Source: Microbotryum violaceum (lineage: Eukaryota). Taken from it: a stretch of DNA of 64,000 nucleotides. The position numbers and the translations under genes are program-made. The stretch spans positions 1,054,001-1,118,000 of the forward strand of contig CDLV01000008.1 in the NCBI GenBank assembly GCA_001244265.2, written 5' to 3'. Below are positions 1 to 55,900 of the stretch, one piece after another; positions within the stretch are counted from its first letter, which is position 1; every line of letters starts with the position of its first letter. Under the pieces are notes generated by a model that had not been told where the DNA came from, did no database searches, and saw only the letters and a program-made list of their open reading frames with translations.

Positions 1-1121
1 CTGTGGACGACTCTGACATCCCGGAGCGGTGATGCTCCGAAATACGCACGAATTACACACTACCGCCCGAACATCACCACTGCATAGCGAAGACAGGCAG
101 AGCTGAAAGCGCTAGGCTCGACCCCGGGACATCAAACCATCTCGTCTTGTTCTTGGGATTAGGCAGTTGAGTTGATGGGATGATGATCCTCAGTGCAATC
201 CAACTTCTTGCACCATCGCCGTTCGAGGTTGGACTCGAAGCCGACTGATTATTGCAAAAGGCAACATTGGTGTCGTTGACCCATGATTCGAAATTAGCCG
301 CGGGCGTGATGTCCCGACATTCGTACGCTTCTCAGAGCTAGCTTCCTCCCGAGAAACGTCGCATGGTCGTTCAACTACCAGGCAGTCAAATTTATTGCGT
401 GCATCAAGGCGAATCTACGAATCGCCTGTTGCTGTTAATTTCCGAACTCGTGCCCAGACTTTACTAGACCCGCGACTTCTAGTGCCTCCTGTCTTGCGTT
501 TTCGGGCTAGTCAGACGCCTGGAATGAGACTGTCAGTTGCGTGTGAAACCTGACACCGAGGACTTCCTCTCTCTCCTGTGGCAATGTCGTCATCATCGGC
601 CGAGTCACCATTGAAAAGACCCACTACAATGTTGCCGGCGCGTGTCGATCCCGCTCGAACCCGCGCTTAAGCTAGATTTAAGTCATACATTCCAGCTTGC
701 CGCTCAGCGCTCAGTCTCCGTCCCCGGATTGCTACCCCTGTCGTGAGCGGAGGCCCCGACAATATGGGGTAATGTATTGCGCCGCCGCGTGATTCTAGCG
801 AATGTTTCCTGGACTTGTTCTTCCCTCACCCTCTTTCGTGCCTGAGTCGTCTTCTACCCCGAATCTCCCGCCCACTCCATATCAACGTCTGAATTCGATC
901 GGTAGGTGGGCAAAGGGGGAACCTTGGGGTCTCTGTTCGTCGATGCCCGAACGGCCGGACGCTCGCTCATCGATCGACCGAAGAGTTTCGCGCCAGGCTC
1001 GGCTTTGCTGAATGAAGCTTGAAGTACGTGTCCGCCAATTGGTGAGGCACGTCCCTACTCCCGAGTCGAACCTTGTTGTCGTTCTTTCAAGCTCTGATGA
1101 CTTGATGGTCCTACCATCATC

Positions 1122-3141
1122 ATGGACATGACCTCATCACGCCCGATCAGCTGCCCCGACCACGTCTCAAGGCATACAGTTGCCTCCACCGCTGCCGCCA
1201 GTACCTCTCGGACCGGTTGGCAGATGCCGTCTCCTAGTTCCTCCGACGGCAGGAACCGCTCGCATCTATCCAAAACACTCCCAAGATGCATCTCCCGCAC
1301 CAGAAACCATAGCAACAGCTTTGACGAGCTGTACGCCATCGGACTAGCGTTGAATGACGACGAAGACGGAATTGCCTACGTTCCCGACGGACCGAGATCC
1401 TCGACGAATTTGGCAACGTTTTGCTCATCGAGCGAAGGCAAGACGGCGTCCGTGAACATCCATGGCAGAGCATTCGGACCGTTGTCGCAGCTTGAAGTGA
1501 GTATTTCTTCTCGTCACCATTCCATGTACCACGCTCAACACTTGACATACGAGGGAGACCATGTGACGAGGATCAGCACTACCGCGAATGCTTGCGTCGA
1601 AGACTTTGCACCGACGATCGACTCGCCGATCAGCCCTAGGACCCTCCTCCCACCTTTATTCGACGACAAGGAAGAAACCACCGTCTCTTCGGGTTCAGGT
1701 GGCACCTTGTTCGGGTCTTGGAACGGTTTCGACGCCGATGTTCTTGCACCTACTGGAGTTGCTCCTCGTGTGACGCTGCCCGTGTCCGCAGCGCCGCCGA
1801 TCTTTGACTATGACGACGATCGTCATCGAAATGAGACCGGGCGAGCCGGGGCTCGCTTGCCTTCATGTGAGATCAATGGGCTTATAACGTAAGTCTACGA
1901 ATGAAGGAGCCCTATACGGACTGAAGGGTACGAGCTGAGCCCGATATCGCCCTGCTCGTGTGGCTCGTGTGTCCTCAGTGTGGAACGTCCGAGCCTGCCT
2001 CCTATCTCGATGGCTACCGATTTAGCTCCTGGCGCACCACTCCTCCTCAGCTCTTCACCACGACATACTCCATCACCTACCGAAGTATTTACATCCCCTT
2101 CATGTAGCCACATTACCCGCTTATCCCGCGATCGAGCCAATTCGACGATCTCAGCTGTCACTTCGCTCGAATCGGCACTTCCTTCAGGAGCGCGCAGCAA
2201 GGCCTCTGTTGCTATGCGTAGGTCTTCGACTACGCCTCTCACGTCGAAGCAGAGCGATTCAGACGAATTGAAGAAGACACCCAGAGGTGCTTTCTCGAAC
2301 GCTTTACTCGATTCGTTCCACCACCTCGACCGTCGAGGCTCGCTGCCCCGCGTCTCCGCATCAACTCCTCCCGAAGCCTCGACCCTTGGATCCAGCTTGG
2401 AAGCAGATACTTCGCTCGATCCTACGCAACGAGGCCGTTCCAACTCAGTCATCAGTCTCGCAAATCTCTCCACCGTCTTCGACTACGTCGGCCGATCCCT
2501 CACCCGTTCGCTCTCCCCCAAAGCTCATCATCCTTCGACGACCCGGGAACGCCACCGCCCTTCAACCCGTCAAAGAACCTGGAGTTTCTCCGGTGCCGCC
2601 TCTTCAATCCTCGGTGGTTCCTCCAGTACGATGGCTCCCACGCATTATCGTTGGGAAGATGTCGTTTCGCTGAGAGCGAGATTTTGTACGTCCTCCGATT
2701 CTACGAGTGGACTTAACTCGTTCATGTTGGGTTTGCACGATATGGAACACGGTGGGAAGGCAAGGAGTTGGGATCCGCGAGGGGCTTGCCCAGCCGAGTC
2801 GGTCCGTACGAGCCCTTCGAGTTCGTCTTTCTCCAACATCGAGCAAAACGGGAACCCTGATCTGACCTTCACGGATCGCTGGCCGAGGGCCGAGACAACA
2901 TGGGGTGAACCGGCCCGAGTGGTCGTGGGCTACGTCGGGGGCTCGCAAAGCGTGTTCTCGCCTCGCGAGTTGACACCACCTCAAGTGAGCAATCACCTTC
3001 TCCTCACACGGCCGAAGTGCATTCTCTCAATTTGACACTCAATTTGAAAACGTTCTTCATCCTTCGTATCAGATCGTCGACAAGATCCTCAACCCTCCTT
3101 CCGTAACTTTCCCCATGAGCACCCCTCGCTCCAAGATCTGA
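1122..3141 (+). CDS. Ser/Pro-rich hypothetical protein, 3 exons (1122-1888, 1979-2984, 3073-3141)
   Basis: ORFs 1122..1892 and 1980..3035 join in frame through a GTAAGT..GCTGAG..CAG intron (1889-1978). A second phase-0 intron GTGAGC..CAG (2985-3072) leads to TGA at 3139-3141. No recognisable domain. Confidence 0.6.
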
Positions 3142-9927: not shown

Positions 9928-12340
9928 ATGACGTCCTACTTTTCGAGGCTAGCGCCGGATCTTTCAAGGTCCAAGCCGAGCATCAACCTTGCGATCCCTG
10001 GCTCAACGTCATCGTCCTCGTCGAGCTCAGCATCAAGAAGCCCTCTCCCCTCCCCCTCCCGACTCCTCTTCGGTCGTCAAGCAACAAGCACAATCCCCAT
10101 CGACCCCTCCGATACAGAAGAGAACCGTGATCTCGAAGACAACAAGATCAAATGCTCCGATTGTCATGCTTTCATGGACGTGACTCAATTGGGCGAACAT
10201 ATCTGTAGCGAATCCCCTCCGTCGACCGGAACGACGATGCCTAGCCACAGTACGGCGGAGGTAGTCTTACCTTTTTCAGTCTCAAGGCTGGCGAATGGAT
10301 TGAAAAGACAGGTGCCGGATGGGTTGCGGATTGATGTGACGGCTACGAAACCGTTGGAATCGGTTGGAGCTTCGACAGGTGGAACGACGGCGACGCATGT
10401 GCCTCTCGGTCCGAAAGGCGCGGTCGTGCAGTCAGGGTCTCAAAGTGGTCCGTCGCTTTTGGACCGGCATCATACTGATAGTTTTCCACTTGGACTGATT
10501 ACGTCGGTCTGTCGCCTCCTTTACTATCTCTTTTACAGGCTACCTGAGCGCGGAAGTGAACAAATCGAACTTTGATGCCTCGCAACCCGCAACCCCGAAC
10601 TACCTCCCTCGCTCGCCATCAACAACGTCGGTCTCGTCGAGCTCGTCAAACAAGCTCCCCTTTTTCGAAAAGTACCAGCGACTCAACACCCCAACCGCAT
10701 CATCGTCGCCCACGACAACAGGGTTGTCGCGCAGCCCCAACTCGGATGACCTCGCTGCCCGAGCCAACTCCCGTCGGCCTGTGTGTCCGACGACGAGTGC
10801 CCATTTGCCGACCCCGGAGGCTACGGGAGGAATGTACAGCCTTCCGAATAATGGCTCGTCTCGGTCACTCGCATCTGCTGGAGCACTCAGTGTCGGTTTG
10901 GGCAGCGGTCGCGCTTCCGCGACCCGTGACCCTTCTCCCCAACCCTCGGTCCGCAGTCTTCAGTCGAATGAATCGCGCTCCTCCGACGCTCGTCCGAGAC
11001 GAGAGAAGTCAAATATCACTGCGGCATCGTTGGTCTTGTCGAGTAGCCCACCTCGTTCGATGCGTATCGTCGTGGACGAACGCCGCATTGTGCCGGCCGA
11101 AGAATTGCCATCACCCGACCACGACGATTTCTTCTCGGCCTACGACGATCATCGTCGTGCGACGCTCAAAGCCTCTCATTCGACTCCGAATGATCTCGCT
11201 TACTACGGTCAAACTAATCCAGCTCATGCGCCGAAACCAAAACCGACGCCTTTGAAGCAGTCGTCCCTTCAGAGTCGAGCGACGCCCGAACTCGATTCCT
11301 CCGCGCAGTCGACCCCTGCGATCTCCATTGGGATGACGCGCAGTAAGGGCTCGAGCCAATCTCTCGATGACTGTCTGGAGGATCTGCGCCTGATGACCGA
11401 GTCGGACGACGAGGAAGAATACGATCCCATCTCGAGCGAGTACTACGATCGACGATTGACCTGTTCGGGACCTTTCGACGAAGACATTGAGCTGGAGCGA
11501 ACCCCGAAAGTCTCTACGGCGTTAACACAGTCGCGTTCGACACCGGCTTTGAGCTCATCGGCGGCATTGGCATCGATTGTGGGATCTGGATCGTCGTCGA
11601 CAAGAGCCCCTCACTCGAGTTCTAGTCGCAACGGAAGCGGAGCCAGCATTTCAGCATACAAACCAACGTCGTACCTGCCGCGCGGCTTCTCCTCAACAAC
11701 GGCAGTTAAGAGCTGCACAACATGTCGACGCGATCTTTCCCACGATCTCAAAAACATTCAAAAAGCCGGTGACGGTCAAGTCTTTTGTCGGAGTTGCTAC
11801 GCCGAGCGGTTCCTACCCAAGTGCCGAAAATGCTGTCGAGCGATCGAAGGTGGTGCCGTCACTTCGAGCGATGGCAAAGTCCTTGGTAAATATCACAAAG
11901 ACTGCTTCACTTGCTTCACTTGCTCGGTACCTTTCCCCGATGGTGATTTCTACGTCTACGACCACAAGCCGTACTGCCAGATGCACTACCACAAACTGAA
12001 CGGCTCGTTGTGCGCGAACGTGCGCTGCAGACAACCGATCGAAGGTCCGTGCGTCTCGCTCGTCGGCGTCGAGAACGGTGGCGGAGGACGCTACCACGTC
12101 GATCACTTTGTATGTTCGCATCAGACGTGTGGGATAGCTTTACTCGAACACCACTTTGTCGTCTCAGGTCTTCCTTTTTGCGAGCGACATGCCGAGGCGC
12201 TTCCCCCCCGACTACCGATGGCGCCGACGGTTGGGTTTTCGAGGTCGAATCCTCTCGCTGGCAGCAATGGTCGCTCGAACTCACCCCCTGCATCGACAAC
12301 GCGAGCCAAGAAGCGTCAAACCATCATCACTCGTCGTTAG
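9928..12340 (+). CDS. LIM-domain protein, paxillin-like (Pxl1-type); intron ~10448-10538
   Basis: C-terminal tandem LIM zinc fingers (CRKCCRAIEG..YHKDCFTCFTC..PYCQMHY; CANVRCRQPIEG..YHVDHFVC..PFCERH). N-terminal CxxC..HxC knuckle and a low-complexity middle region. Confidence 0.8.
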
Positions 12341-12551
12341 ATCGGGATGTACCGTGTTCCTAGGAGCTTCGGCGCAGATTTTTTCTTTCGCAAACTCGCC
12401 ATGTCGACGTCACCGAAACTGCGCACGTACCCGCCCGCCAGCTGCTAGCGCAAGATCGTCGATGTTTGCCCTGACCCTCCCCGCCTCGGCATCCCCATTA
12501 TCGCCCCGCACGTATTGCCGTACCCCGAGTTCTCACTTCCCCATCTCCCGA

Positions 12552-12612
12552 CTTTCTCACGCAAACATTTCTCACGCAAACATTTCTCACGCCAGCTTTT
12601 CACACGCCAGCA
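12552..12612 (+). repeat. 15-bp tandem repeat (TTTCTCACGCAAACA, ~4 degenerate copies) downstream of the LIM gene
   Basis: Directly visible in the sequence. Confidence 0.7.
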
Positions 12613-13030
12613 TCTCATATTATCCGCGTTCAGGACTCGTCTGCATTTTCATCTCGTAACCTTTTGCATACCAATCCTTTTTGATGTCTGCGTAGGCAGA
12701 CGTAGTCATGTGCGCTACCCAACTTCGCTTCACTCGCTTCGCCTATTCGCGCTCCCTCGATTTCTCTCGATGCTCCTTTTTCATAGCGGCCCTGATTGCC
12801 AGTTCTAGCTTGATTTTTGCCCTTCTGCACCTCTTCTTCTCCGTATCGGTCTTGCCCTCTCTCTCCAGCGGTGCATAGCCCTGTCTTCTTGTGTAAGAAT
12901 CCAGCCGAAGGTTTCGTTGTCAAAAATTGAGGGTCCCCAGCCTGGAAATATTATTGAGCGCCTGGACATGAGGGATTGCAACACCGCGTTCAGTTGCAAC
13001 TTTTGAGCTCGGACCTACACAGGTGCAGTG

Positions 13031-13296
13031 TGTTGCAACAAGGACTAAGAGGTACTCCACGACTCAGCTCCGAGATACACGAATGAGATGATGAGAATAG
13101 CGTGGCTTTGCGTAACTAACCTAAGAGGTACTCCACGACTCAGCTCCGAGATACACGAGTGAGATGATGAGAATAGCATGGAGAAGGAACCCAGAAGGAA
13201 AAAAGACACAAAAGACAAAGATAGGCGCGCGCGCAGAATAAAGTATTAACCAAGACTAATAGCAATGAGTTAGGCTCTCAGACCCCACTTCTAACA
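13031..13296 (-). mobile_element. Solo LTR (266 bp) with internal 57-bp direct repeat and predicted intron
   Basis: Minus strand reads TGTTAG...CAACA. Flanks CAGTG/CAGTT form a 5-bp TSD with 1 mismatch. Repeat copies at 13045-13101 and 13121-13177. Sense orientation is inferred. Confidence 0.75.
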
Positions 13297-13356
13297 CAGT
13301 TCACCGAACTCGCCGCGTTAAAATTCTGGGGCGGTACCGGTGCTGGGGGGTGCGCT

Positions 13357-13503
13357 TGCGCTAACTCGCGCGCGCCAAATTGAGTTGGCGCAATTGAGTT
13401 AGCGCACTTGAGTTGGCGCAGTCGAGCGCCCTAGCGCACTTGAGTTAGCGCACCGCGCGCGCTTGAGTTGGCGCACTTGAGTAAGCGCACTGAGTCGGCG
13501 CAA
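13357..13503. repeat. Array of ~7 copies of a ~14-bp motif (TTGAGTTRGCGCAC) plus one inverted copy; probable transposon subterminal repeats
   Basis: Copies near 13381, 13395, 13409, 13441, 13464, 13478 and 13491, with inverted TGCGCTAACTC at 13357. The array lies just upstream of a transposase relic. Confidence 0.75.
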
Positions 13504-13557
13504 TCAGGCGCGCCGCGTGCCCCCTTGTCTTCATGCTGCAACGTGCCATATCCTACG

Positions 13558-15520
13558 ATGCAACTGCTGTCACGCTTTTTTCGGAAACGAAGCGCCGATA
13601 ACACGGACGACATAATGAAGCAGCTGGCAAAGCTATCTGGGGCAAGGCTGCAACAAGCAAAGGTCAGTTACTACGGACTTGCGCCAGTCCTGGCGCCGGG
13701 CAGGAGCTGATGTATGTATCTCGAACCATCCCCTGTCACTAGTCCCTTCCTCAGACGATACCGCTGTGCAAATTCTAATCGATCTCTGGCATTTCTTTGA
13801 CCGGATCTATGTGTCCAAAAAACATGGCGCTGCCAAAGCCTTTGCTCGCGCCTTCTCCGATGCGGTTTTCATCCCGAATGCGGATGATCGACTCCTGATG
13901 GAGGCTCGCCTAGCAAAACTCGGAATGACGTGGGAAGAAGCGGTCCGCTCGCCGGTATGGAATAAGAAGCTTTGGAGACGCGTTCGTCGCTGGATCCCTC
14001 CGCCAGGCATTCTCGAGCCTTTGGTCCGGGAGGTCTTTGAGAAGCTCGGTCGATGCGAAGTCGAAGCAACCACTTTTCAACAAAGCGGCGCACGAGGCAG
14101 CGAAGAGATGTCTTGAGGCGATTCGGAAAGGCCAATTATCGGATCCAGTTGGCATCGAGCTGTACACCGACCTTGGGCCTTGCGGAGGGCCAGATGGAAA
14201 GGCGGATGACGGTGTCCGTTTATATTCCTGCCAGCGCGACACCAACAGTCTCGAAGGAGGCATCCATCGGAACCTTCGCCAACGGGTTCCAAAGTCTGGT
14301 GTTTCTCCGTGCCATGTCAATGCATGCACGGCTGACTACGTGCTAGTGCACAATCTCACGGTCAGTCCAACTCCACCATCGCAATTCGAAGAAGCGGCAA
14401 CCATTCTCACCCATTATCCCTTGTATTCGCAGGTTGGGACGTTTGATCGTACCGGAAAACCATTCGTGGGGCACTACGACCTCTGGCTCACTGTGGAATT
14501 ACATCGTCTGAGGCGCAAAACCTCGGCATTTTTCCCACGGCATTCAACCACCGTGTCAGATATAGTCAACCCGCTGCTCTACACCCCATCCACCGAAACA
14601 TTCAGTATCGTACCTGTTGTTCAGTCGCCAACAGCGCAAATGCGCTTTTTGATCGAGCCCTATCAAGTCGAGCGCGGGACTCTGTGTTTGGAGCCCGTCA
14701 AGTGGTCGCCACGGAACTTGCTGCAAAATAATACGCCGACGATAGGGCATATGAAAAGCCGGCTGCCAACCGATCGCAAGCTTCGCCACGACTGGCCAGC
14801 GGAACGTCAGGGTACTCGATTTGATGTGTTGTATGTCCACACACCCAGCGAACGAGCGCTATACAGAAATCTCTCAAGCAAGGTACGACTGGGAGCTCCT
14901 CAAAATCTTCGGATATTCGAGATTACCGAGCCTTGGAACAAGTATGCCAACGGACTAGACATTTCTTACAAAGTATGTCGCGTCTGTGTCACACTGAATG
15001 GTGATGTTGAGCTGAAGCGCAATCCTCACACAGATGCCAGAGCACATCAATACATGGGCACCGAGATGGTCGTCGCTGGCAAATACTCAAGTCACAATGA
15101 ACATGGGTGGGAACGACGTCATAGTGATTCAAGCTTTGCTTACCGATCCCTCCCGCGGTCGTGATGTTAGCATGCTAGCGGCTAAGCCATTACTCGGTCA
15201 CAAACCGCCTGTCTTGGGGAGGCTTACAGAGGTAGAAGTCGATTTCTCGGATCCTCCAACGTCATCCATCCGCCCCTTTGTTGCAACTGCCTCGAGCGAC
15301 GCTGGTTCGAGCGCGGAGTTGGGCACGAGCAGCGCTTTGACGCGCGCGGGTACCACAAAAGGGGCAAAGCACGTCGATTATGTGGGCAAACTATTTGTCG
15401 ACGCAAGGGGTCAAAACTAAGCGATGACGGATCGGTGACTGAGTGTGACGGGGCGTGCTTGGACTGCGGGAAGCACAGACGAGATGGATCCGAACGACCC
15501 ACAATCATGAAGGTTATGTA
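13558..15520 (+). pseudogene. Truncated, frameshifted DDE-type transposase fragment (DxxH ... TNxxEG architecture, Mutator/ISL3-like signature)
   Basis: Motifs ILIDLWHFFDRI (DxxH), RVRRWIPPP, PLFNK..GQLSDPVGIELY and YSCQRDTNSLEGGIH (candidate catalytic E). Frameshift near 14048; intron-like breaks; N-terminal catalytic part absent. Confidence 0.6.
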
Positions 15521-15642: not shown

Positions 15643-16005
15643 CTTCCTCTCTTTCTCCTTTTTCACCTCCCCCTCCCTCTTCTTCTTTCTCCAAGTTCTT
15701 TCTCTTCCCCTCCCTCTTCTCTTTTCCCCCCCCCCCCTTTTTCCCTTTCCCTCTCCTCTTTTTCTTTTTCTTTTCTTTTTCTTTTTCTTTTCTTTTTCTT
15801 TTTCTTTTCTTTTTCTTTTTCTTTTCTTTTTCTTTTTCTTTTTCTTTTTCTTTTTCTTTTCTTTTTCTTTTTCTTTTCTTTTTCTTTTTCTTTCCTCCCC
15901 CTCGCCCCCCCTTTCTTTTTCTTTTTCTTTTTCTTTTTCCTTTTCCTTTTCCTTTTCCTTTTCCTTTTCCTTTTCTTTTTCTTTTCTTTTCCTCTCCTCC
16001 CCCCC
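15643..16005 (+). repeat. ~360-bp almost pure polypyrimidine tract, (CTTTTT)n/(CCTTTT)n microsatellite
   Basis: Directly visible in the sequence. Confidence 0.95.
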
Positions 16006-29717: not shown

Positions 29718-32566
29718 GAGGGCCTTTTTGGCCTGATAATTCCAGGCGCTCGGCTGGAAATACCAGGCGCCTGGAAATACCAGGGGCTTGGGTAATACCC
29801 TCGTGAGGTGGTAATACCCGACCCACTGGTATTTCCAGCCGCGCGGGTATTACCACTTCACGAGGGGTACTACCCAAGCCGCTGGTATTTCTGTCGGTTG
29901 GGTATTCACCTTCTCAGCTGGTATTTCCACCCGAAAAGTCTCAATAGGGGCTCTTGTGCGGAGCACGACCGAGCGCAATTAGCATTAGGTTTTTTGTAAT
30001 GGGTGTCACCTTTGTAGTACTAATGCTCTGCTCATATTCGAATTTACTAAAACTTGTATTCGAACTTACTAATGCTCATGTTGGAATTTACTAATGCTCA
30101 CATCCAAAATGTAGTTTTTCAATGCAGGGTTTTCTACTGTATTATGGTATAGGTACAATACAAAGCAGCAAACTGAGGTCCACGTCCGTCACAGGCTCCT
30201 CCCATTTGTCTGGATTGTCAGATTGATCAAGATGAAACCGCCCGAAGCTCCGGCTGCCGCTCCTCTTGCCCGTTTCTTATACCCTTTAGTCGGCTCTAAT
30301 TATTCTTCCTCCTCTTCCTCTACCCGAGACTGCTCTTCCTCGCTTTCTTCTCTGCGGCGGACCCGCCTGATGATGGTGTTCTGGCTGATGCGAGAAGATT
30401 GTTTAGCGTTTGCCTCCTTCGTCGATTTTAACCGACCCGGGCCTCTTGTTCAATCGAGAATAGTGACTAACCTTCAGAGCGATCCTACGCCTAGCTCGTT
30501 GCGCAGTCTTGTGGCGAACCCGCCTGGTGATGGTCTTCTGGCTAATGCGAGAACATTGTTTAGCGTTCGCCTCCTTCGTCGATTTTGACTGACCCGGGCC
30601 TCTTGTTCAATCGAGAGTAGTGACTAACCTTTAGAGCAGATCCTATGCCTAGCTCGTTGCGCAATCTTGTGATGTCCGCCCTGGAAAGCCGTCCCATGAT
30701 CCCCGCCAACCGACAGGCCTCACGGTCGTACTGCAGTCTATACGCGGCTCAGGACATTCGCCAACACATCAATAACAGATTCTTCAGAGAGCCAGTCGCC
30801 CGATGTGACCCTTAAGAAAGCCGTGCGCTCACGAATCTGAAAGAGGATGACGAGTGAGTGCCTGAGCAAGCGCACGTTCCGTACATTCCGCGCAACTCAC
30901 ATATTTGACGATATCTTGTTGTTTTGCAGGTCCAAGACATCCCCACACAGTAGTGTTGCTTTGCGTTTTGGCTTGAATGAGCCTGAACGCGTCCTTGAGG
31001 TTGAACTCCTTAGGCGTGTGGTAGTCTGGAGTCCACATGCCGACCATAAAAGTTGATGGGGTCAGGTGTGGTGATTCCTGCCTTTACTAGTGCATCCCGT
31101 ACAACCGACGGGTCGAAGGACATCACACAGATGGTGAGCACTGAGGAGTCAGATCGACGAGATGGCGTCGCGCCCCGATCGTTGAGCCGCCGGTACTCAC
31201 GCAACCCAATCATAGTATACTCGCGCAGGCTCATAGAACCCTTGTCTTTTCAACGTATTTTCTGGCTGGAAGAAACAAGAAGACAGGTAGCCGCAGTGGG
31301 CCGATGGTGAAGGACGGCGGCGCGGTTGAAAAAGAACACGTCAGCAAATTCCCTCAACTGTGGCGGTGCAGACGCAGACCGCAAAAATTTCAGCTTTCTG
31401 TACACACGTGGACGTCATTCATGCGGTGGTTTGTTCGACTTGTCCATCCTTGTTGTACGTCTTGCCGTGGTCGACAATGTTTGTGTCATGGTAGGAAGAC
31501 GTAGGCGGGGAGGGTTGAGCTTCGACGTGGGCACAAGTGGATCGAAGGCGAAAGAAGGAAAGAAGCGCGCGGACGCATGGCGCCATTCTTCAGCGCACAT
31601 AATCAAATCTGCCTAATCGCTGCTCGTATTGCGCATTACTGTAGCCCTAATGTCCCGGATGGCCTGCCGGACTCGAGCTTCTTCGGTCGGGGGGATCAAT
31701 GGGGTCAAGTGAGGACCAAGCGCTAGGATTGGACGAAGAAAATTTTCGCGAGACACAACAGTTTGACGCGGCATTTGATTGGGGAATGGTGTCTCCTGAC
31801 CTGGAATACGAGGACCGCTCCAGCTCCAGCTCGCTCCCATTCGACGACGACGACGACGACGACGACTCCTCACGTACAAACGCTAATTTGTGCCTCTCAC
31901 TCCACAGACTTTCCTGGTAGGGAAAGTCAGGTCTCTTAATCTAAGTCGATTGGAAGCCGTCGACGCTATCGAGCGGACTCCGGTGGCCAAGCCAGCGCAA
32001 AGGCGGCAAAAAAGAAAGGCTGCTTTTGTTGTCAGTGCGCAGAGGCACCAAAACTTGTTTTTCACTCGAGGTCAAGGAACTCTGGGAGCGATCGAGATTA
32101 TAGATCTGCGCTGCATCTTAGGATCAGCTGGTCGCATCTATCGGAGGGTGGGTCGAGACTCGAGAGGAGCCTCGCGAGTATATCTGTGACCGATTGGAGG
32201 ACGAAGCTCGGCCCAATTTCTTGAGCTTGTAATCCATTCCCAGCTGTTTTCCATCTGCTAGGCTAGAAGTCATTTGGCTCATGCTGAGACAGCTGAGAGT
32301 AGCGGTATGACTAGGATCTAGATCCAATATATAAGTGGACAATACCATACCTGGCTGGGAATACCACCGGGCGAGGGTGATAATGGTGCCGGCTGGTATT
32401 ACCACGCGCCTGGGCAGAATCTCATTCGGCCGGAGCGATATCACCTTGCGACCTGGCAATACCCAGGCGTCTGGGTAATACTCGACGGCCTGGTATTTCC
32501 AAGTGACGGCTGGAATTACCACGCGCTTGGGTAAAATCAGCGCGCGCGTGGAAATGACACCCTTCC
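29718..32566. mobile_element. Degenerate non-autonomous TIR-like element with motif arrays at both ends and a decayed minus-strand spliced ORF
   Basis: Clusters of CTGGAAATACC/GGTATTTCCAG/GGTAATACC motifs in both orientations at ~29735-29930 and ~32340-32560. Ends GAGGG.../...CCCTTC. No clear TSD; boundaries approximate. Confidence 0.45.
30356..30671. repeat. Tandem duplication of a ~157-bp unit (exon plus intron on the minus strand)
   Basis: ACCCGCCTG at 30361 and 30518; CTTGTG ends at 30513 and 30671. Each unit contains GTTAGT..GCTAAAC..YAG on the minus strand. Confidence 0.85.
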
Positions 32567-45831: not shown

Positions 45832-47853
45832 AGTACGTCGCATGCTGTGTTAGTCAGACCTGAGACAATTCCGCTGACTGTGACCGTGTGATATACAGTG
45901 TCTCTTTCCAACAAGCTCTCGATCAAGGACGTCCAGCTCAAGGGCAAGAAAGTGCTCATCCGGTACGTGCGGCCTGTTCGCTTGAGCTGGTGCCCGCCCT
46001 CCTGCCCCACCACCGTCCACGGGCTCACAAGGCTGACGAGATGTCACGCCCATCTACAGAGTCGACTTCAACGTCCCTTTCGATGGACCCAAGATCACAA
46101 ACAATCAGGTTAGTGGGTGCGACAGCTTGTAGTGTCTCTTGTCGGTGGCTCTCTGCGGTGTCCTGTTCTCCGAAATCCATGCGGAGCTCAGTCCTGGTCG
46201 ACGACGATGGAGCGCATCGATGAACGGCGCATATGAACGGCGCATGGACACCCACTGTGCATGTCACGCACTTGAGACCGCGGTGCAGTGATGCTACGAC
46301 GCTACCAGCCCTTTATAATGCTGGACCGAATCAAAAGAGATCGCTATTGCAGCATTGCGTACGAGCTAAGCACCCCGTTGTTGGCACTGGAGCTGACCCA
46401 ACCAATATGCGCCCCTAAACCCGCACTTCTCATATGGTGACCCTGCAACCTCTCCTACTCCAATCCTGTGCCATGCATGGTCTCATTTCGAGGCCACAGC
46501 GCATCGTCGCTGCCATCCCCACGATCAAGCACGCCCTCGACCAAGGCGCCTCGGCCGTCGTGCTCATGTCCCACCTCGGTCGACCGGACGGCCACGTCGT
46601 AAAGAAGTACTCGCTCAAGCCCGTCGCCAAGGAGCTCGAGTCGCTCTTGTCCAGGTCCGTCACCTTCCTTCCCGACTGCGTTGGTGAGGAGACCGAAAAG
46701 GCCGTTGCCAACGCCAAGGACGGCCAGATCATCTTGCTCGAGAACCTGCGCTACCACGCCGAGGAGGAAGGCTCGTCCAAGGACAAGGACGGCAAAAAGA
46801 CCAAGGCTGACCCCGAGGCCGTCAAGAAGTTCCGAGCGAGCCTGACCAAGCTCGGTGACGTCTACGTCAACGACGCCTTCGGTACCGCCCACCGAGCGCA
46901 CTCCTCCATGGTGGGCGTCGACTTGCGCCAAAAGGCCGCCGGTTTGCTCATGACCAAGGAACTCGAGTACTTTGCCAAGGTCCTCGAGGAGCCGCAACGC
47001 CCATTCTTGGCCATCCTTGGTGGTGCCAAGGTCTCTGACAAGATCCAGCTGATCGAGAACCTCCTCGACAAGGTCAGTCCGCATACATCTAAGGTCCCAA
47101 TTCAGGATTTAGACTGACCGACAGGGGATTGGACTCGATGCAGGTCAACTCGTTGATCGTTTGCGGTGGTATGGCCTTCACCTTTAAGAAGACGCTCGAG
47201 AAGGTTGAGATCGGTACCTCCCTGTTCGACAAGGACGGTGCCCAGAAGGTTGCCGAGTTGGTCGAGAAGGCCAAGGCCAAGAACGTCGAGCTCGTCTTCC
47301 CCGTCGACTACATCACCGCCGACAAGTTTGCGAAGGACGCCCAAGTCGGCACCGCAACCGACAAGGAGGGTATTCCCGAGGGCTGGATGGGTCTCGATGC
47401 CGGAGAGGAGTCACGCAAGTTGTTCGCTGAGGCCATCAAGAAGGCCAAGACGATCCTGTGGAACGGCCCCGCCGGTGTCTTTGAATTTGACAACTTTGCC
47501 AAGGGGTCCAAGGCGACGTTGGATGCCTGCATCGAGGCCAAAGAGAATGGCGCTACTGTCATCGTTGGAGGTGCGTTACCGCATCTACACTACTTTGAGG
47601 ATCACACAGCTGATGCGATTGCTTGCTTTCGCCTCACTCTGCAGGTGGTGACACGGCCACCGTTTGCGCCAAGTATGGCGCCGAGGAGAAGCTCTCGCAC
47701 GTCTCGACAGGTGGTGGAGCCTCGCTCGAGCTCCTCGAGGGCAAGGTAAGTGTCTTTGAGAAGTGTCACAGTCTGCGACATATTCATGAGCTGACCGTGC
47801 CGCTTTTCAACTCACAGGAATTGCCCGGTGTCAAGGCCCTTTCCGAGAAATGA
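45832..47853 (+). CDS. PGK1: Phosphoglycerate kinase (7 coding exons; start codon split A|TG)
   Basis: [89 protein letters not shown]. Confidence 0.97.
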
Positions 47854-52973: not shown

Positions 52974-55900
52974 ATGTCATCATCCTCATCGCCATCATCC
53001 ACAGACTTTGTTTTAGAATGGTCCTCTCAGCGAGCTTCTGCCGGCTATGTGTGCCGATACTGTGGTGGCGAGCGCATGTGGTATCGTCGCGCCGTCCGAC
53101 ACGCCACGACCAAGAAGCACCTCGACGCGTACAACAGTTGAGCCGATCCCGCTGTCAATTGGACCAACCGGTTACTGCAACCCACGCCTCAGGCGCTCTC
53201 GAGCAGCGACGAGGCGGACTTGGTCGATTCCAATCAAAATCCGGCAGAGACCGGAACAGTAGGCCACTCTCTGCTTGCTGTCGCTGGCGAGATCATCAAG
53301 TCGTCTGAAAGCGTGCCTGCTTCCAGTCCGTCCCCGCCAAGTGATCACGAGGATTCCGTTCTCGACCACGCCCTCTTCCTTCCAGAAGGCAATTGCTCGC
53401 CCTATTTCCAGGGCACTGGCTCCAAGTCCGACAGCGAGGTCGAGATCGATGGCGGGGCGGAGGAAGAAGAGTCGGATGACTGGGTTAAGACTTGGGCCAC
53501 TGCGGGCTCCACCAGTGAGTGGGGACGAGCAATGATGCAATGCCCCTCGTGAATTTTCCACTAACGCAAGTATTGCCCAACTTCTGGGCTGTAGCTGTGG
53601 TGACAGGCAGCCCCGCGATGCCCACACGGCTGGGCGTGCGCAACTACACAAGCGTACCTGATTCGTCGCATCCCTGGTATCCCTTCCCCAGTCAGAATGT
53701 GCGCCGATCTACTTTCTTTGCTCCGGAATCACGCGATCGGCCAAGAGCTGACCCCCTTGCGAACATAGATGATGATCATCGTCGTGTTTCTCAGATCCCA
53801 TAAACGCCGGATCAGCGTGCAAGAGCTGGACGACATGCTTGCATTCGCCAAGGCCTTCGGCGTGCAGGGTCTTCCTGCGGCCTCTTCCGTCAAAAGTTTC
53901 TGGCCAACTTGGAAAAAGAGATTCCCCTCTTCAAGCCCCGCCAGTATACGAAGGAGGACGGACGCTCTCTTCACGTGGTGTCGCCTGGCGATTACGTCGC
54001 TGCGGTAGGTTTTAGGAACCTGAGGCCCGAGGCACGATGTACGTAAGCACGAGAGCCGAAGAAGATAGTAAAGATAGTTCGAGCATTGCAAGACTAACCT
54101 GAGGCCCGAGGCACGATGTACGTAAGCACGAGAGCCGAAGAAGATAGTAAAGATAGTTGGAGAAGAGAGAGAAGCGCTAAGGGCGCGCGCACTTGGAAGG
54201 CTAGAGGCGCGCGCGCGGCTAATATCAACAACTAGATACTAAACTATTCTAAGTGGGATGAAACAGTAATACCCTTTTGACAGTAGGTCCCTGCGATTCC
54301 GTGTTAATGGTCGAGTGCCTTTGACTGAACCGTTTCCGGGAACGAACAATGTTGCACAGCATTTTGCAACGCCTTCATTGGCCCCTCTCGTGCAGCATTA
54401 TCCCGAGTTTCAGCCTTCTCAAGTCGATTCCGCCTATCACACTCGCCGCTGGCTCACTGACCTTCCTCCCAGATTTTCGGCCCCCATGGCCCGCGTCAGG
54501 GGCGACGACTACTTTGTTGACGAGATCATCAAGCTCAAGGGTGTTGATGATATGCACTGGTTCGTCGGCCGCTTCGTCTCTTTCGAAAGCAAGGTGCACG
54601 CTTTCGTTTGCTTTGCAGCCATCAAGTCTATCTTTCGGGTCGAGGTCAAGCTGCCCGCTGCTGGGCGTCAACTCATAAAGTGGCCACAAATGTCCCCTTC
54701 GCGATGGTGCCTGGTACCTGTCGAGCAGTTCGATCATCCAGTTCTCGAGATCGAACAGATGTTCCTCAATGTGACAATTGGTGAGTACCTCACCCTTTCT
54801 TGCAACCTCTGCCGACGTACTGTGCGCTCATACTGGCTGAGTGAACACGGCGCGCTAGTCGTACTCGACCCGAACATAGAGCCTGAGGAACCCCAGCGGT
54901 TGCTACCCTTGCGATCAACCGATCGTCTTCTAGCGAAAGGAACATTGCTTCTTGTGGCCCCCCTGCGGCTGTTCCTCGATGACATGGCCGCGACGGAGTC
55001 CAAGCGATGGAACCCGATGTATACAGTAAATCGAACCCTCCACGGGCACGCAGGTTGAGCGGCGGCCGTCACTGACACTCCTTTCGTCTGACCCGGGATC
55101 CCCGCAGGCATCTATTCAGAACCTAGCCCTTCCCTCTACAGTGCTTCGGCGAAGATATATGCTGCATCACACCGGTGTCACCAACATCGACGTGGATGCC
55201 CTTGATCTCGCCGAAGTTGTGCTTGTCTTGATTTCGTTTGTCACGCCTCGGTGCGCTCCTCTATCGCTTGGGAGCCCTCACTGATTGCTCGAACTTTTGA
55301 TACTCGCCTAGAGAAACCATGGAGAACAATCCGATCGAGTGTTACAGCTCAGCGGCAGGTGGTGATGTCATGATTCGCACGCCGGTCTTGTACTCCGTAC
55401 ACGACTCGCCGATGGCAGCGGCGTGCTCAGCGAGGGCAGGACGCGGAATGTTCCCATGCATCCGATGTCGATGGGGAGGCTCATGGAAGGAGAGGCTTAC
55501 AGAGGCTCAGATGGTCTTGTTCTTCAAGGTGCGCCTGCCACTGCCCGTCCCTTCTGGCCGTTCTTCGCAGTGGTGCTAATTCGTGATCCTGTGCCTCCGC
55601 AGTGTACATGCCAGCTGGATGGCAACACCACACGTGAAGAAGCGCTGCAACAGATCGAAACCTACGCGAGTGGGCTCGCGATGACGAGCGTCAAAGAACA
55701 ACAGACCTCGACGGGCACCCACGACGCATGGACAAAGCGAACACTGCAGCGCCTCGCCAACTGCTTCAAAAAGGAAATGAAGCACAAGAGCTTCGGGGTA
55801 AAGCCCGAGACCTTAGAGGTGAAAGCCTACAACAACATGGGCCCAACGGCCAAGACGCGCGTAAAGACGGCGAATGAGGCGCGGGCTCTGGAGGAAGTGG

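Follow-up and report, generated by a model that had tools for sequence, protein, structure and literature searches.

Positions 13031-13296 of the window (the whole stretch of Microbotryum DNA that was analysed, 64,000 nucleotides in length) are occupied by the solo LTR of an abundant Microbotryum retrotransposon of the Ty1/copia type, whose sense strand is the minus strand (Table 1). Read on that strand, this LTR (LTR1) starts with TGTTAG at 13296 and finishes with GCAACA at 13031, and its TG..CA ends conform to the TGTT..ACA termini of copia-type LTRs. The target-site duplication is imperfect, with four of the five letters matching (AACTG versus CACTG). The last 151 nt of LTR1, from the end of the CT-rich tract to the end of the LTR, are arranged as repeat, 15-nt spacer, repeat and 14-nt tail, and likely represent its R-U5 part. 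A second solo LTR (LTR2), which belongs to a sister family, displays the same layout.

Table 1. Coordinates of the two solo LTRs and of their parts within the window
Feature	Position	Strand	Description
Solo LTR #1 (LTR1)	13031-13296	-	266 bp, TGTTAG..TTGCAACA, high-copy Ty1/copia-type family; placed by sequence, depth and contig loose ends
Target-site duplication, upstream half	13297-13301	-	AACTG; 4/5 letters match 13030-13026
Target-site duplication, downstream half	13026-13030	-	CACTG
LTR1 U3-like part	13182-13296	-	TA-rich TTAATACTTTATT, GCGCGCGCGCC box, CT-rich tract ending in conserved CTTCTCCA
GCGCGCGCGCC box of LTR1	13234-13224	-	placed by sequence
LTR1 repeat copy 1	13121-13181	-	61 nt, end CCTCTTAG; exon 1 if spliced
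LTR1 spacer	13106-13120	-	15 nt, GTTAGTTACGCAAAG, begins with donor-like GTTAGT
LTR1 repeat copy 2	13045-13105	-	61 nt, 59/61 identical to copy 1, end CCTCTTAG
Candidate intron of LTR1	13045-13120	-	76 nt, spacer plus copy 2, GT..AG; removal leaves one repeat
LTR1 tail (U5 end)	13031-13044	-	14 nt, TCCTTGTTGCAACA
Solo LTR #2 (LTR2)	54010-54282	-	273 bp, sister family, same layout; placed by self-comparison
LTR2 repeat, first copy	54162-54099	-	unit ends CCTCAG
LTR2 spacer	54098-54084	-	GTTAGTCTTGCAATG
LTR2 repeat, second copy	54083-54020	-	
LTR2 tail	54019-54010	-	GTTCCTAAAA

Identity of LTR1 and its neighbours

The extent of LTR1 is fixed by its other copies. Four public sequencing runs (X1, X11, X17 and X18) were compared with the window over 11500-14500, all of them as contigs assembled from 31-letter words. 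The contigs leave the window sequence at 13030/13031 on one side and at 13293/13296/13299 on the other, and loose ends are present at both LTR ends in all four runs. In the DNA run X1 the bins of LTR1 show depths of 7070, 15365 and 15358 versus 102 in the single-copy flank, and in X11 depths of 568, 825 and 530 versus 5.6-8.1 in the flank. This places LTR1 at ~70-150 times the single-copy flank in DNA runs, a depth that is one figure per contig and gives no reading of the number of repeats per LTR. The presence of this particular insertion in both X1 and X11 follows from contigs of unique flank that enter the LTR and stop at 13059. Within the 64-kb window no further copy of LTR1 is found, no open frame spanning it is of sufficient length for a protein search, and the GC box (GCGCGCGCGCC) alone is not enriched (7 matches versus 3.5 expected, with 12 of 100 shuffles reaching 7). 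The minus-strand parts that the first-pass annotation had read in 13031-13296 all lie at the positions it gave, and its proposal that the segment is an LTR, and a solo one, is borne out by the boundaries, the depth and the lack of a second copy in the window.

The orientation of the element is provided by run X17. Two of its contigs carry 255 and 135 letters that are absent from the window and end in ..GAGCTCATAACC, followed by the 13031 end of LTR1, so that on the minus strand the junction reads CAACA/GGTTATGAGCTC, with the motif placed directly after the LTR tail. The same run contains an LTR1-like variant ending in GTAAAA beside the same primer site GGTTATGAGCTC. This motif would pair with the anticodon loop of the initiator tRNA-Met, departing from the usual GGGCUCAUAACC by a single letter; no tRNA gene was found in the 64-kb window. 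Because a putative primer site of the copia/Ty5 type adjoins the CAACA end in other copies, the minus strand is the sense strand, in agreement with the first-pass annotation. Priming from the anticodon loop, in combination with 5-bp target duplications, is on record for copia and Ty5 as well as for Copia families of fungi (PMC10886601), and in M. lychnidis-dioicae Copia-like elements outnumber every other kind of LTR element (PMC4469406). An assignment to the small-RNA-derived LTRs (Helenus/Ajax) was considered and rejected, as none is reported in Microbotryum (PMC10886601). Among public metagenome contigs there are no matches to the 26-nt repeat core or to the architecture pattern, and none among viral and prokaryotic genome contigs. 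This LTR may already be included in the supplementary TE consensus libraries that accompany published work on Microbotryum.

A second multi-copy element lies 31 nt from LTR1 on the plus strand, extending from 13328 to beyond 15600 with an X1 depth of 850-3000 versus 102. It presents 14-bp subterminal repeats at 13380-13502 and a gene starting at 13558, with introns at 13663-13742, 14361-14432 and 14973-15033. Of the 30 homologues of this gene, 29 are named as Microbotryum, which assigns the window to that genus. The gene belongs to no Pfam family, and DUF6729 (scores 0.91 and 0.88) is its sole Atlas lead. The element is probably an undescribed DNA transposon family. At its far end (15648-15990) there is a long low-complexity array, rich in CT and T, with a period of 6 and 40 copies.

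The repeat pair in two diverged LTR families

Repeat finding recovers two 61-nt copies in LTR1, 97% identical (59/61) and with a period of 76 nt, and the pair emerges from the self-comparison of the window with an E value of 6.7e-22. Tandem Repeats Finder (score 50, 26 rows) omits the LTR1 repeat and lists that of LTR2. The first-pass annotation had reported a 57-nt repeat with one mismatch; the repeat is real, and the 57 nt correspond to the inner part of the full unit. The identity of the two copies stops exactly at AG/, where the slash marks the candidate splice site. One of the two differences between them lies at 13178, where the A of copy 1 is private to this LTR1, nearly all other copies reading G in the run contigs. 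This private change fits copies that were identical at insertion. Both repeats are placed after TA-rich, GC-box and CT-rich tracts, which would argue against a position upstream of the core promoter in U3. The RNA structure of the leader gives no fold signal (z of +1.50 and -0.75).

On the minus strand, LTR2 presents in order TGTCAAAAGG.., a GCGCGCGCGCC box, a CT-rich tract, unit, spacer, unit and GTTCCTAAAA. It starts with TGTC but finishes with AAAA, and it is flanked by a perfect 5-bp duplication, GTAGG (54005-54009 and 54283-54287). The self-comparison and Tandem Repeats Finder place its repeat at 54017-54162, with a period of 79, 1.8 copies and 98% identity; the two copies match at 63/64 positions, compared with 59/61 within LTR1, and their identity extends 3 nt beyond AG. 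Between the two LTRs, the U3 parts are identical at 69/131 positions (1 of 500 shuffles reaches the score) and the spacers at 11/15 (2 of 500), whereas the repeat units coincide at only 37-38/69 (~54%; 27/500 and 7/500 shuffles) and the tails at 7/16 (90/500). The octamer AG/GTTAGT (AGGTTAGT) is identical in LTR1 and LTR2, and YAG/ and the repeat-spacer-repeat order are also kept. The pattern AGGTTAGTNNNGCAA occurs in the window only at LTR1 and LTR2, with 0.15 occurrences expected and one of 100 shuffles reaching two. The first-pass annotation had exposed its reading beforehand to a test on the conservation of GT and AG, and it is precisely AG/GTTAGT, YAG/ and the layout that the diverged LTR2 retains.

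The presence of the same layout in a diverged sister family indicates that it was inherited and is not a one-off accident. More specifically, the spacer is single-copy in each LTR and yet homologous between the families, from which it follows that the repeat-spacer-repeat order predates the family split. Only two LTRs are compared and the homology of the units is weak, so that independent young duplications retain some room. As judged from their sequences, the two repeat copies evolve in concert within each LTR. This is what the first-pass annotation expected of near-identical copies under its model of an intron rebuilt at every cycle, but ordinary template switching together with selection can account for it as well (PMC3187697).

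Two further observations concern the spacer and the surroundings of LTR2. By hand count, the stretches 13106-13122 and 54084-54100 (minus strand) agree at 11/17 and 10/17 positions with A/GGTTATGAGCTCAACG, the junction that other copies show where the LTR meets its primer site, and the likeness of the spacer to the LTR tail is weaker (GTT..GCAA). A duplicated U5 or primer site may have left the spacer as its relic, but the shared AGGTTA alone may also explain the likeness. As for LTR2, a plus-strand gene carries it in antisense orientation, 5 nt into an intron of 77 nt (window 54005-54360), in the context ..GDYVAA/GTAGG, LTR2, GTAGGTCC..GCACAG/HFATPS... The donor GTAGGT is restored by the duplicated GTAGG together with the initial T of the LTR, so that the host intron, now 355 nt long, is probably still functional.

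Splice signals of the candidate intron

The candidate introns measure 76 nt in LTR1 and 79 nt in LTR2, in each case exactly one repeat period, and in both LTRs the removal of the GT..AG segment restores a single-copy sequence. As the first-pass annotation had pointed out, the segment 13120-13045 is made up of the spacer and one repeat copy, and its size, which was said to be typical locally, agrees with that of 25 local introns (median 75 nt, range 51-130). The introns of the neighbouring gene that are backed by spliced contigs have 80 and 72 nt. The splice signals were scored with crude matrices trained on these 25 introns, a small and partly motif-chosen set that makes the scores rough. The donors score 7.2 in LTR1 and 7.9 in LTR2, values that are reached by 2% and 1.5% of random GT sites, respectively, and that are low among the training introns. 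The acceptor of LTR1 scores 1.3, which 37% of random sites reach and none of the 25 training introns falls to, and that of LTR2 scores 5.3. The branch-like words are CTGAG and CTCAT in LTR1 and CTTAC, 24 nt from AG, in LTR2; CTGAC or CTGAT serves as branch in 19 of the 25 training introns and is present in neither LTR.

The donor octamer AGGTTAGT occurs five times in the window versus 0.65 expected, and none of 100 shuffles reaches five; one occurrence is the donor of a phosphoglycerate kinase (PGK) gene, two lie in a duplicated exon/intron start and two in the LTRs. The PGK donor, at 46107, follows a coding stretch, and the ORF downstream of it matches the Pfam PGK family at 1.9e-73 from profile position 25. 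AGGTTAGT is thus a genuine splice donor elsewhere in this genome. GTTAGT itself is the rarest GTNAGT in the window (8/100), and it is found in none of 29 heuristic donors. The duplicated exon/intron start corresponds to a 157-bp tandem duplication at 30361-30672 (minus strand; 2.0 copies, 91% identity), which looks like part of a cellular gene because each unit contains AAG/GTTAGTCAC.

The 13120/13045 joint is absent from the four runs, all of them contigs that could hardly show one: a 61-nt repeat is too long to be spanned by words of 31 letters, and the leader, once spliced, would sit on copy 2 and the tail without any joint. X18, one of two runs presumed to be RNA, does contain spliced contigs of the neighbouring gene, but its cover over 13015-13115 is zero, and its source is a relative, which over 1271 nt of the LIM gene differs in 72 letters and shows 89 gaps. 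X17, the other such run, has depth ratios that are DNA-like. Weighing these signals, a real, spliced intron in the leader of LTR1 is a tenable proposition, albeit one that we regard as somewhat doubtful.

Origin of the duplicated leader and its significance

The explanation that we consider, on balance, probable is that the repeat lies in R/U5 and is kept uniform by strand transfer in the course of reverse transcription, the two-copy form being retained by selection. Two diverged families share a two-copy form with identical copies, and therefore a copying process is needed and selection probably too. Reverse transcription would keep the copies alike through strand transfer and template switching from one to the other, which within R/U5 would homogenise them far faster than mutation could separate them. 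At the insertion of each LTR, its two copies differed little or not at all. Reverse transcription destabilises direct repeats, which recombine frequently in its course; one of 110 bp suffers a 41% loss per cycle, and LTR repeats of 50-75 bp are known to change in this process (PMC3187697). Transcription would start near the beginning of copy 1, and the conserved AG/GTTAGT that ends copy 1 would most simply act as a splice donor. In that event, the spacer and copy 2 would form a leader intron of the tandem-duplication kind, which might be the target of selection. Both the homogenisation by reverse transcription and any splicing are inferred.

The model put forward in the first-pass annotation goes further and postulates a self-regenerating LTR intron, in which the intron would be rebuilt, and both copies made identical, in every cycle; we regard it as unlikely. 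According to this model, the transcript of the 5′ LTR would start at copy 1 and be spliced from AG/GTTAGT to the AG that ends copy 2, in the 3′ LTR, cleavage and polyadenylation of the RNA would take place within copy 2, upstream of the acceptor, and the minus-strand strong-stop DNA would comprise copy 1 and the tail (75 nt). This DNA would then land on the partial copy 2 and copy the spacer, copy 1 and U3. The model predicts copies that are identical at insertion while the families diverge, as is seen (the change at 13178 being private), and it alone predicts an identity that ends at AG/, which holds true in LTR1 and reaches 3 nt further in LTR2. It is also alone in predicting a repeat that begins at the transcription start; the repeat begins at the conserved CTTCTCCA after the CT-rich tract, where a fungal start would be plausible, and the octamer conserved between the LTRs is a genuine donor elsewhere in the genome. 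A 61-nt direct repeat would otherwise be expected to be lost over the cycles (PMC3187697). Against the model, the poly(A) site of copy 2 should also act in the identical copy 1, unless the donor suppresses it, which represents an extra assumption. Likewise, copy 1 could serve just as well as landing site of the strong-stop DNA, which would give one-repeat LTRs, so that a preference for copy 2 is needed. Both the acceptor and the branch of LTR1 are weak. Finally, the packaging of unspliced RNA, as practised by retroviruses, keeps introns without any self-regenerating device. In the main texts searched, mostly from outside subscription journals, we found no account of an LTR intron duplicating its own exon, nor of one restored through strand transfer.

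It is equally improbable that the repeat is an incidental and unspliced tandem duplication, enhancer-like or neutral, that arose recently and separately in each family and exhibits GT..AG by chance. Direct repeats of 50-75 bp are classic in LTRs (PMC3187697), the intron signals other than the donor are mediocre, the homology of the repeat units between families is marginal and the leader lacks RNA structure, all of which would suit such an accident. However, the spacers agree at 11/15 positions between the families with AGGTTAGT identical, which makes the order older than the split. Moreover, the ends of the duplication are nearly the same in LTR1 and LTR2, and the promoter-like part, with its TA-rich and CT-rich stretches, precedes the repeats, an order that would not suit U3 enhancers.

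That the segment is no LTR at all but some other short repeat (a MITE, for instance, or a piece of the adjacent transposon), or that its plus strand is sense, can hardly be right: the target duplication of only 4/5 and the element that starts near 13328, 31 nt away, might suggest it, but LTR1 and that element are bounded separately and differ 5- to 10-fold in depth, the TG..CA ends go with a putative copia-type primer site beside the CAACA end in other copies, and LTR2 has a perfect 5-bp duplication.

To our knowledge, a leader of the repeat-spacer-repeat kind is not part of the described copia/Ty5-type elements, in a comparison that concerns the LTR. Spliceosomal signals inside an LTR, which are candidate signals here, are shared with deltaretroviruses, where the splice donor is located in R and only the donor lies within the LTR. 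They are also shared with maize LTR retrotransposons, for which spliced LTR-contained transcripts have been presented as a first in a 2026 preprint; the maize introns average 1303 bp, and no connection with a repeat or with reverse transcription is described for them (PMC13192763). In its ~270-bp length, its 5-bp target duplication and its adjoining putative primer site (GGTTATG..), LTR1 is akin to the copia/Ty5-type elements (PMC10886601).

A close parallel for the repeat of LTR1 is provided by retroviral LTRs, whose direct repeats of 50-75 bp undergo precise loss, gain and homogenisation by template switching (PMC3187697). Unlike the U3 enhancer repeats of retroviruses, those of LTR1 come after the promoter-like tract and have splice-like ends, and exactly two copies are conserved in two diverged families. 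Regarding the candidate intron, an established route of intron gain is the duplication in tandem of a segment that contains AGGT (Hellsten et al. 2011; PMC3265369), with the potato RdRp as a further case of a duplication-derived intron (PMC4974935). Like these introns, that of LTR1 comprises one period, with the donor after copy 1 and the acceptor ending copy 2. It differs from them in its location within the LTR of a retroelement, where a spliced template would erase the duplication, in that the copies stay identical over evolutionary time and do not drift, and in an identity that stops at AG and does not run through AGGT. A connection between solo LTRs and introns is also known from introners, since Copia solo LTRs can turn into host introns (PMC12130899), and LTR2 does sit inside a host intron. 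In introners, the whole element becomes the intron of a host gene, whereas the candidate intron of LTR1 is a part of the LTR's own transcript (PMC12130899).

Retroelements are expected to lose introns and direct repeats, and here both survive in the LTR, the intron as a candidate, in two diverged families. Should there be a fungal copia clade with a leader intron lying wholly inside the LTR and rebuilt from the spliced exon in each round of retrotransposition, to which we give little credence, an intron would persist, its sequence locked to that of the exon before it, even though the replication of the element passes through spliced RNA. If the leader is spliced, it would reveal how a retrotransposon can keep an intron, perhaps to the benefit of expression, export or evasion of host surveillance, despite replicating through RNA, and it would constitute a natural case of an LTR that owes its form jointly to the donor, to the start of transcription and to the first strand transfer. 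The many long-read genomes and RNA data sets of Microbotryum make this question directly testable. Even without splicing, the repeat pair would stand as a clean natural example of the concerted evolution of repeats driven by reverse transcription.
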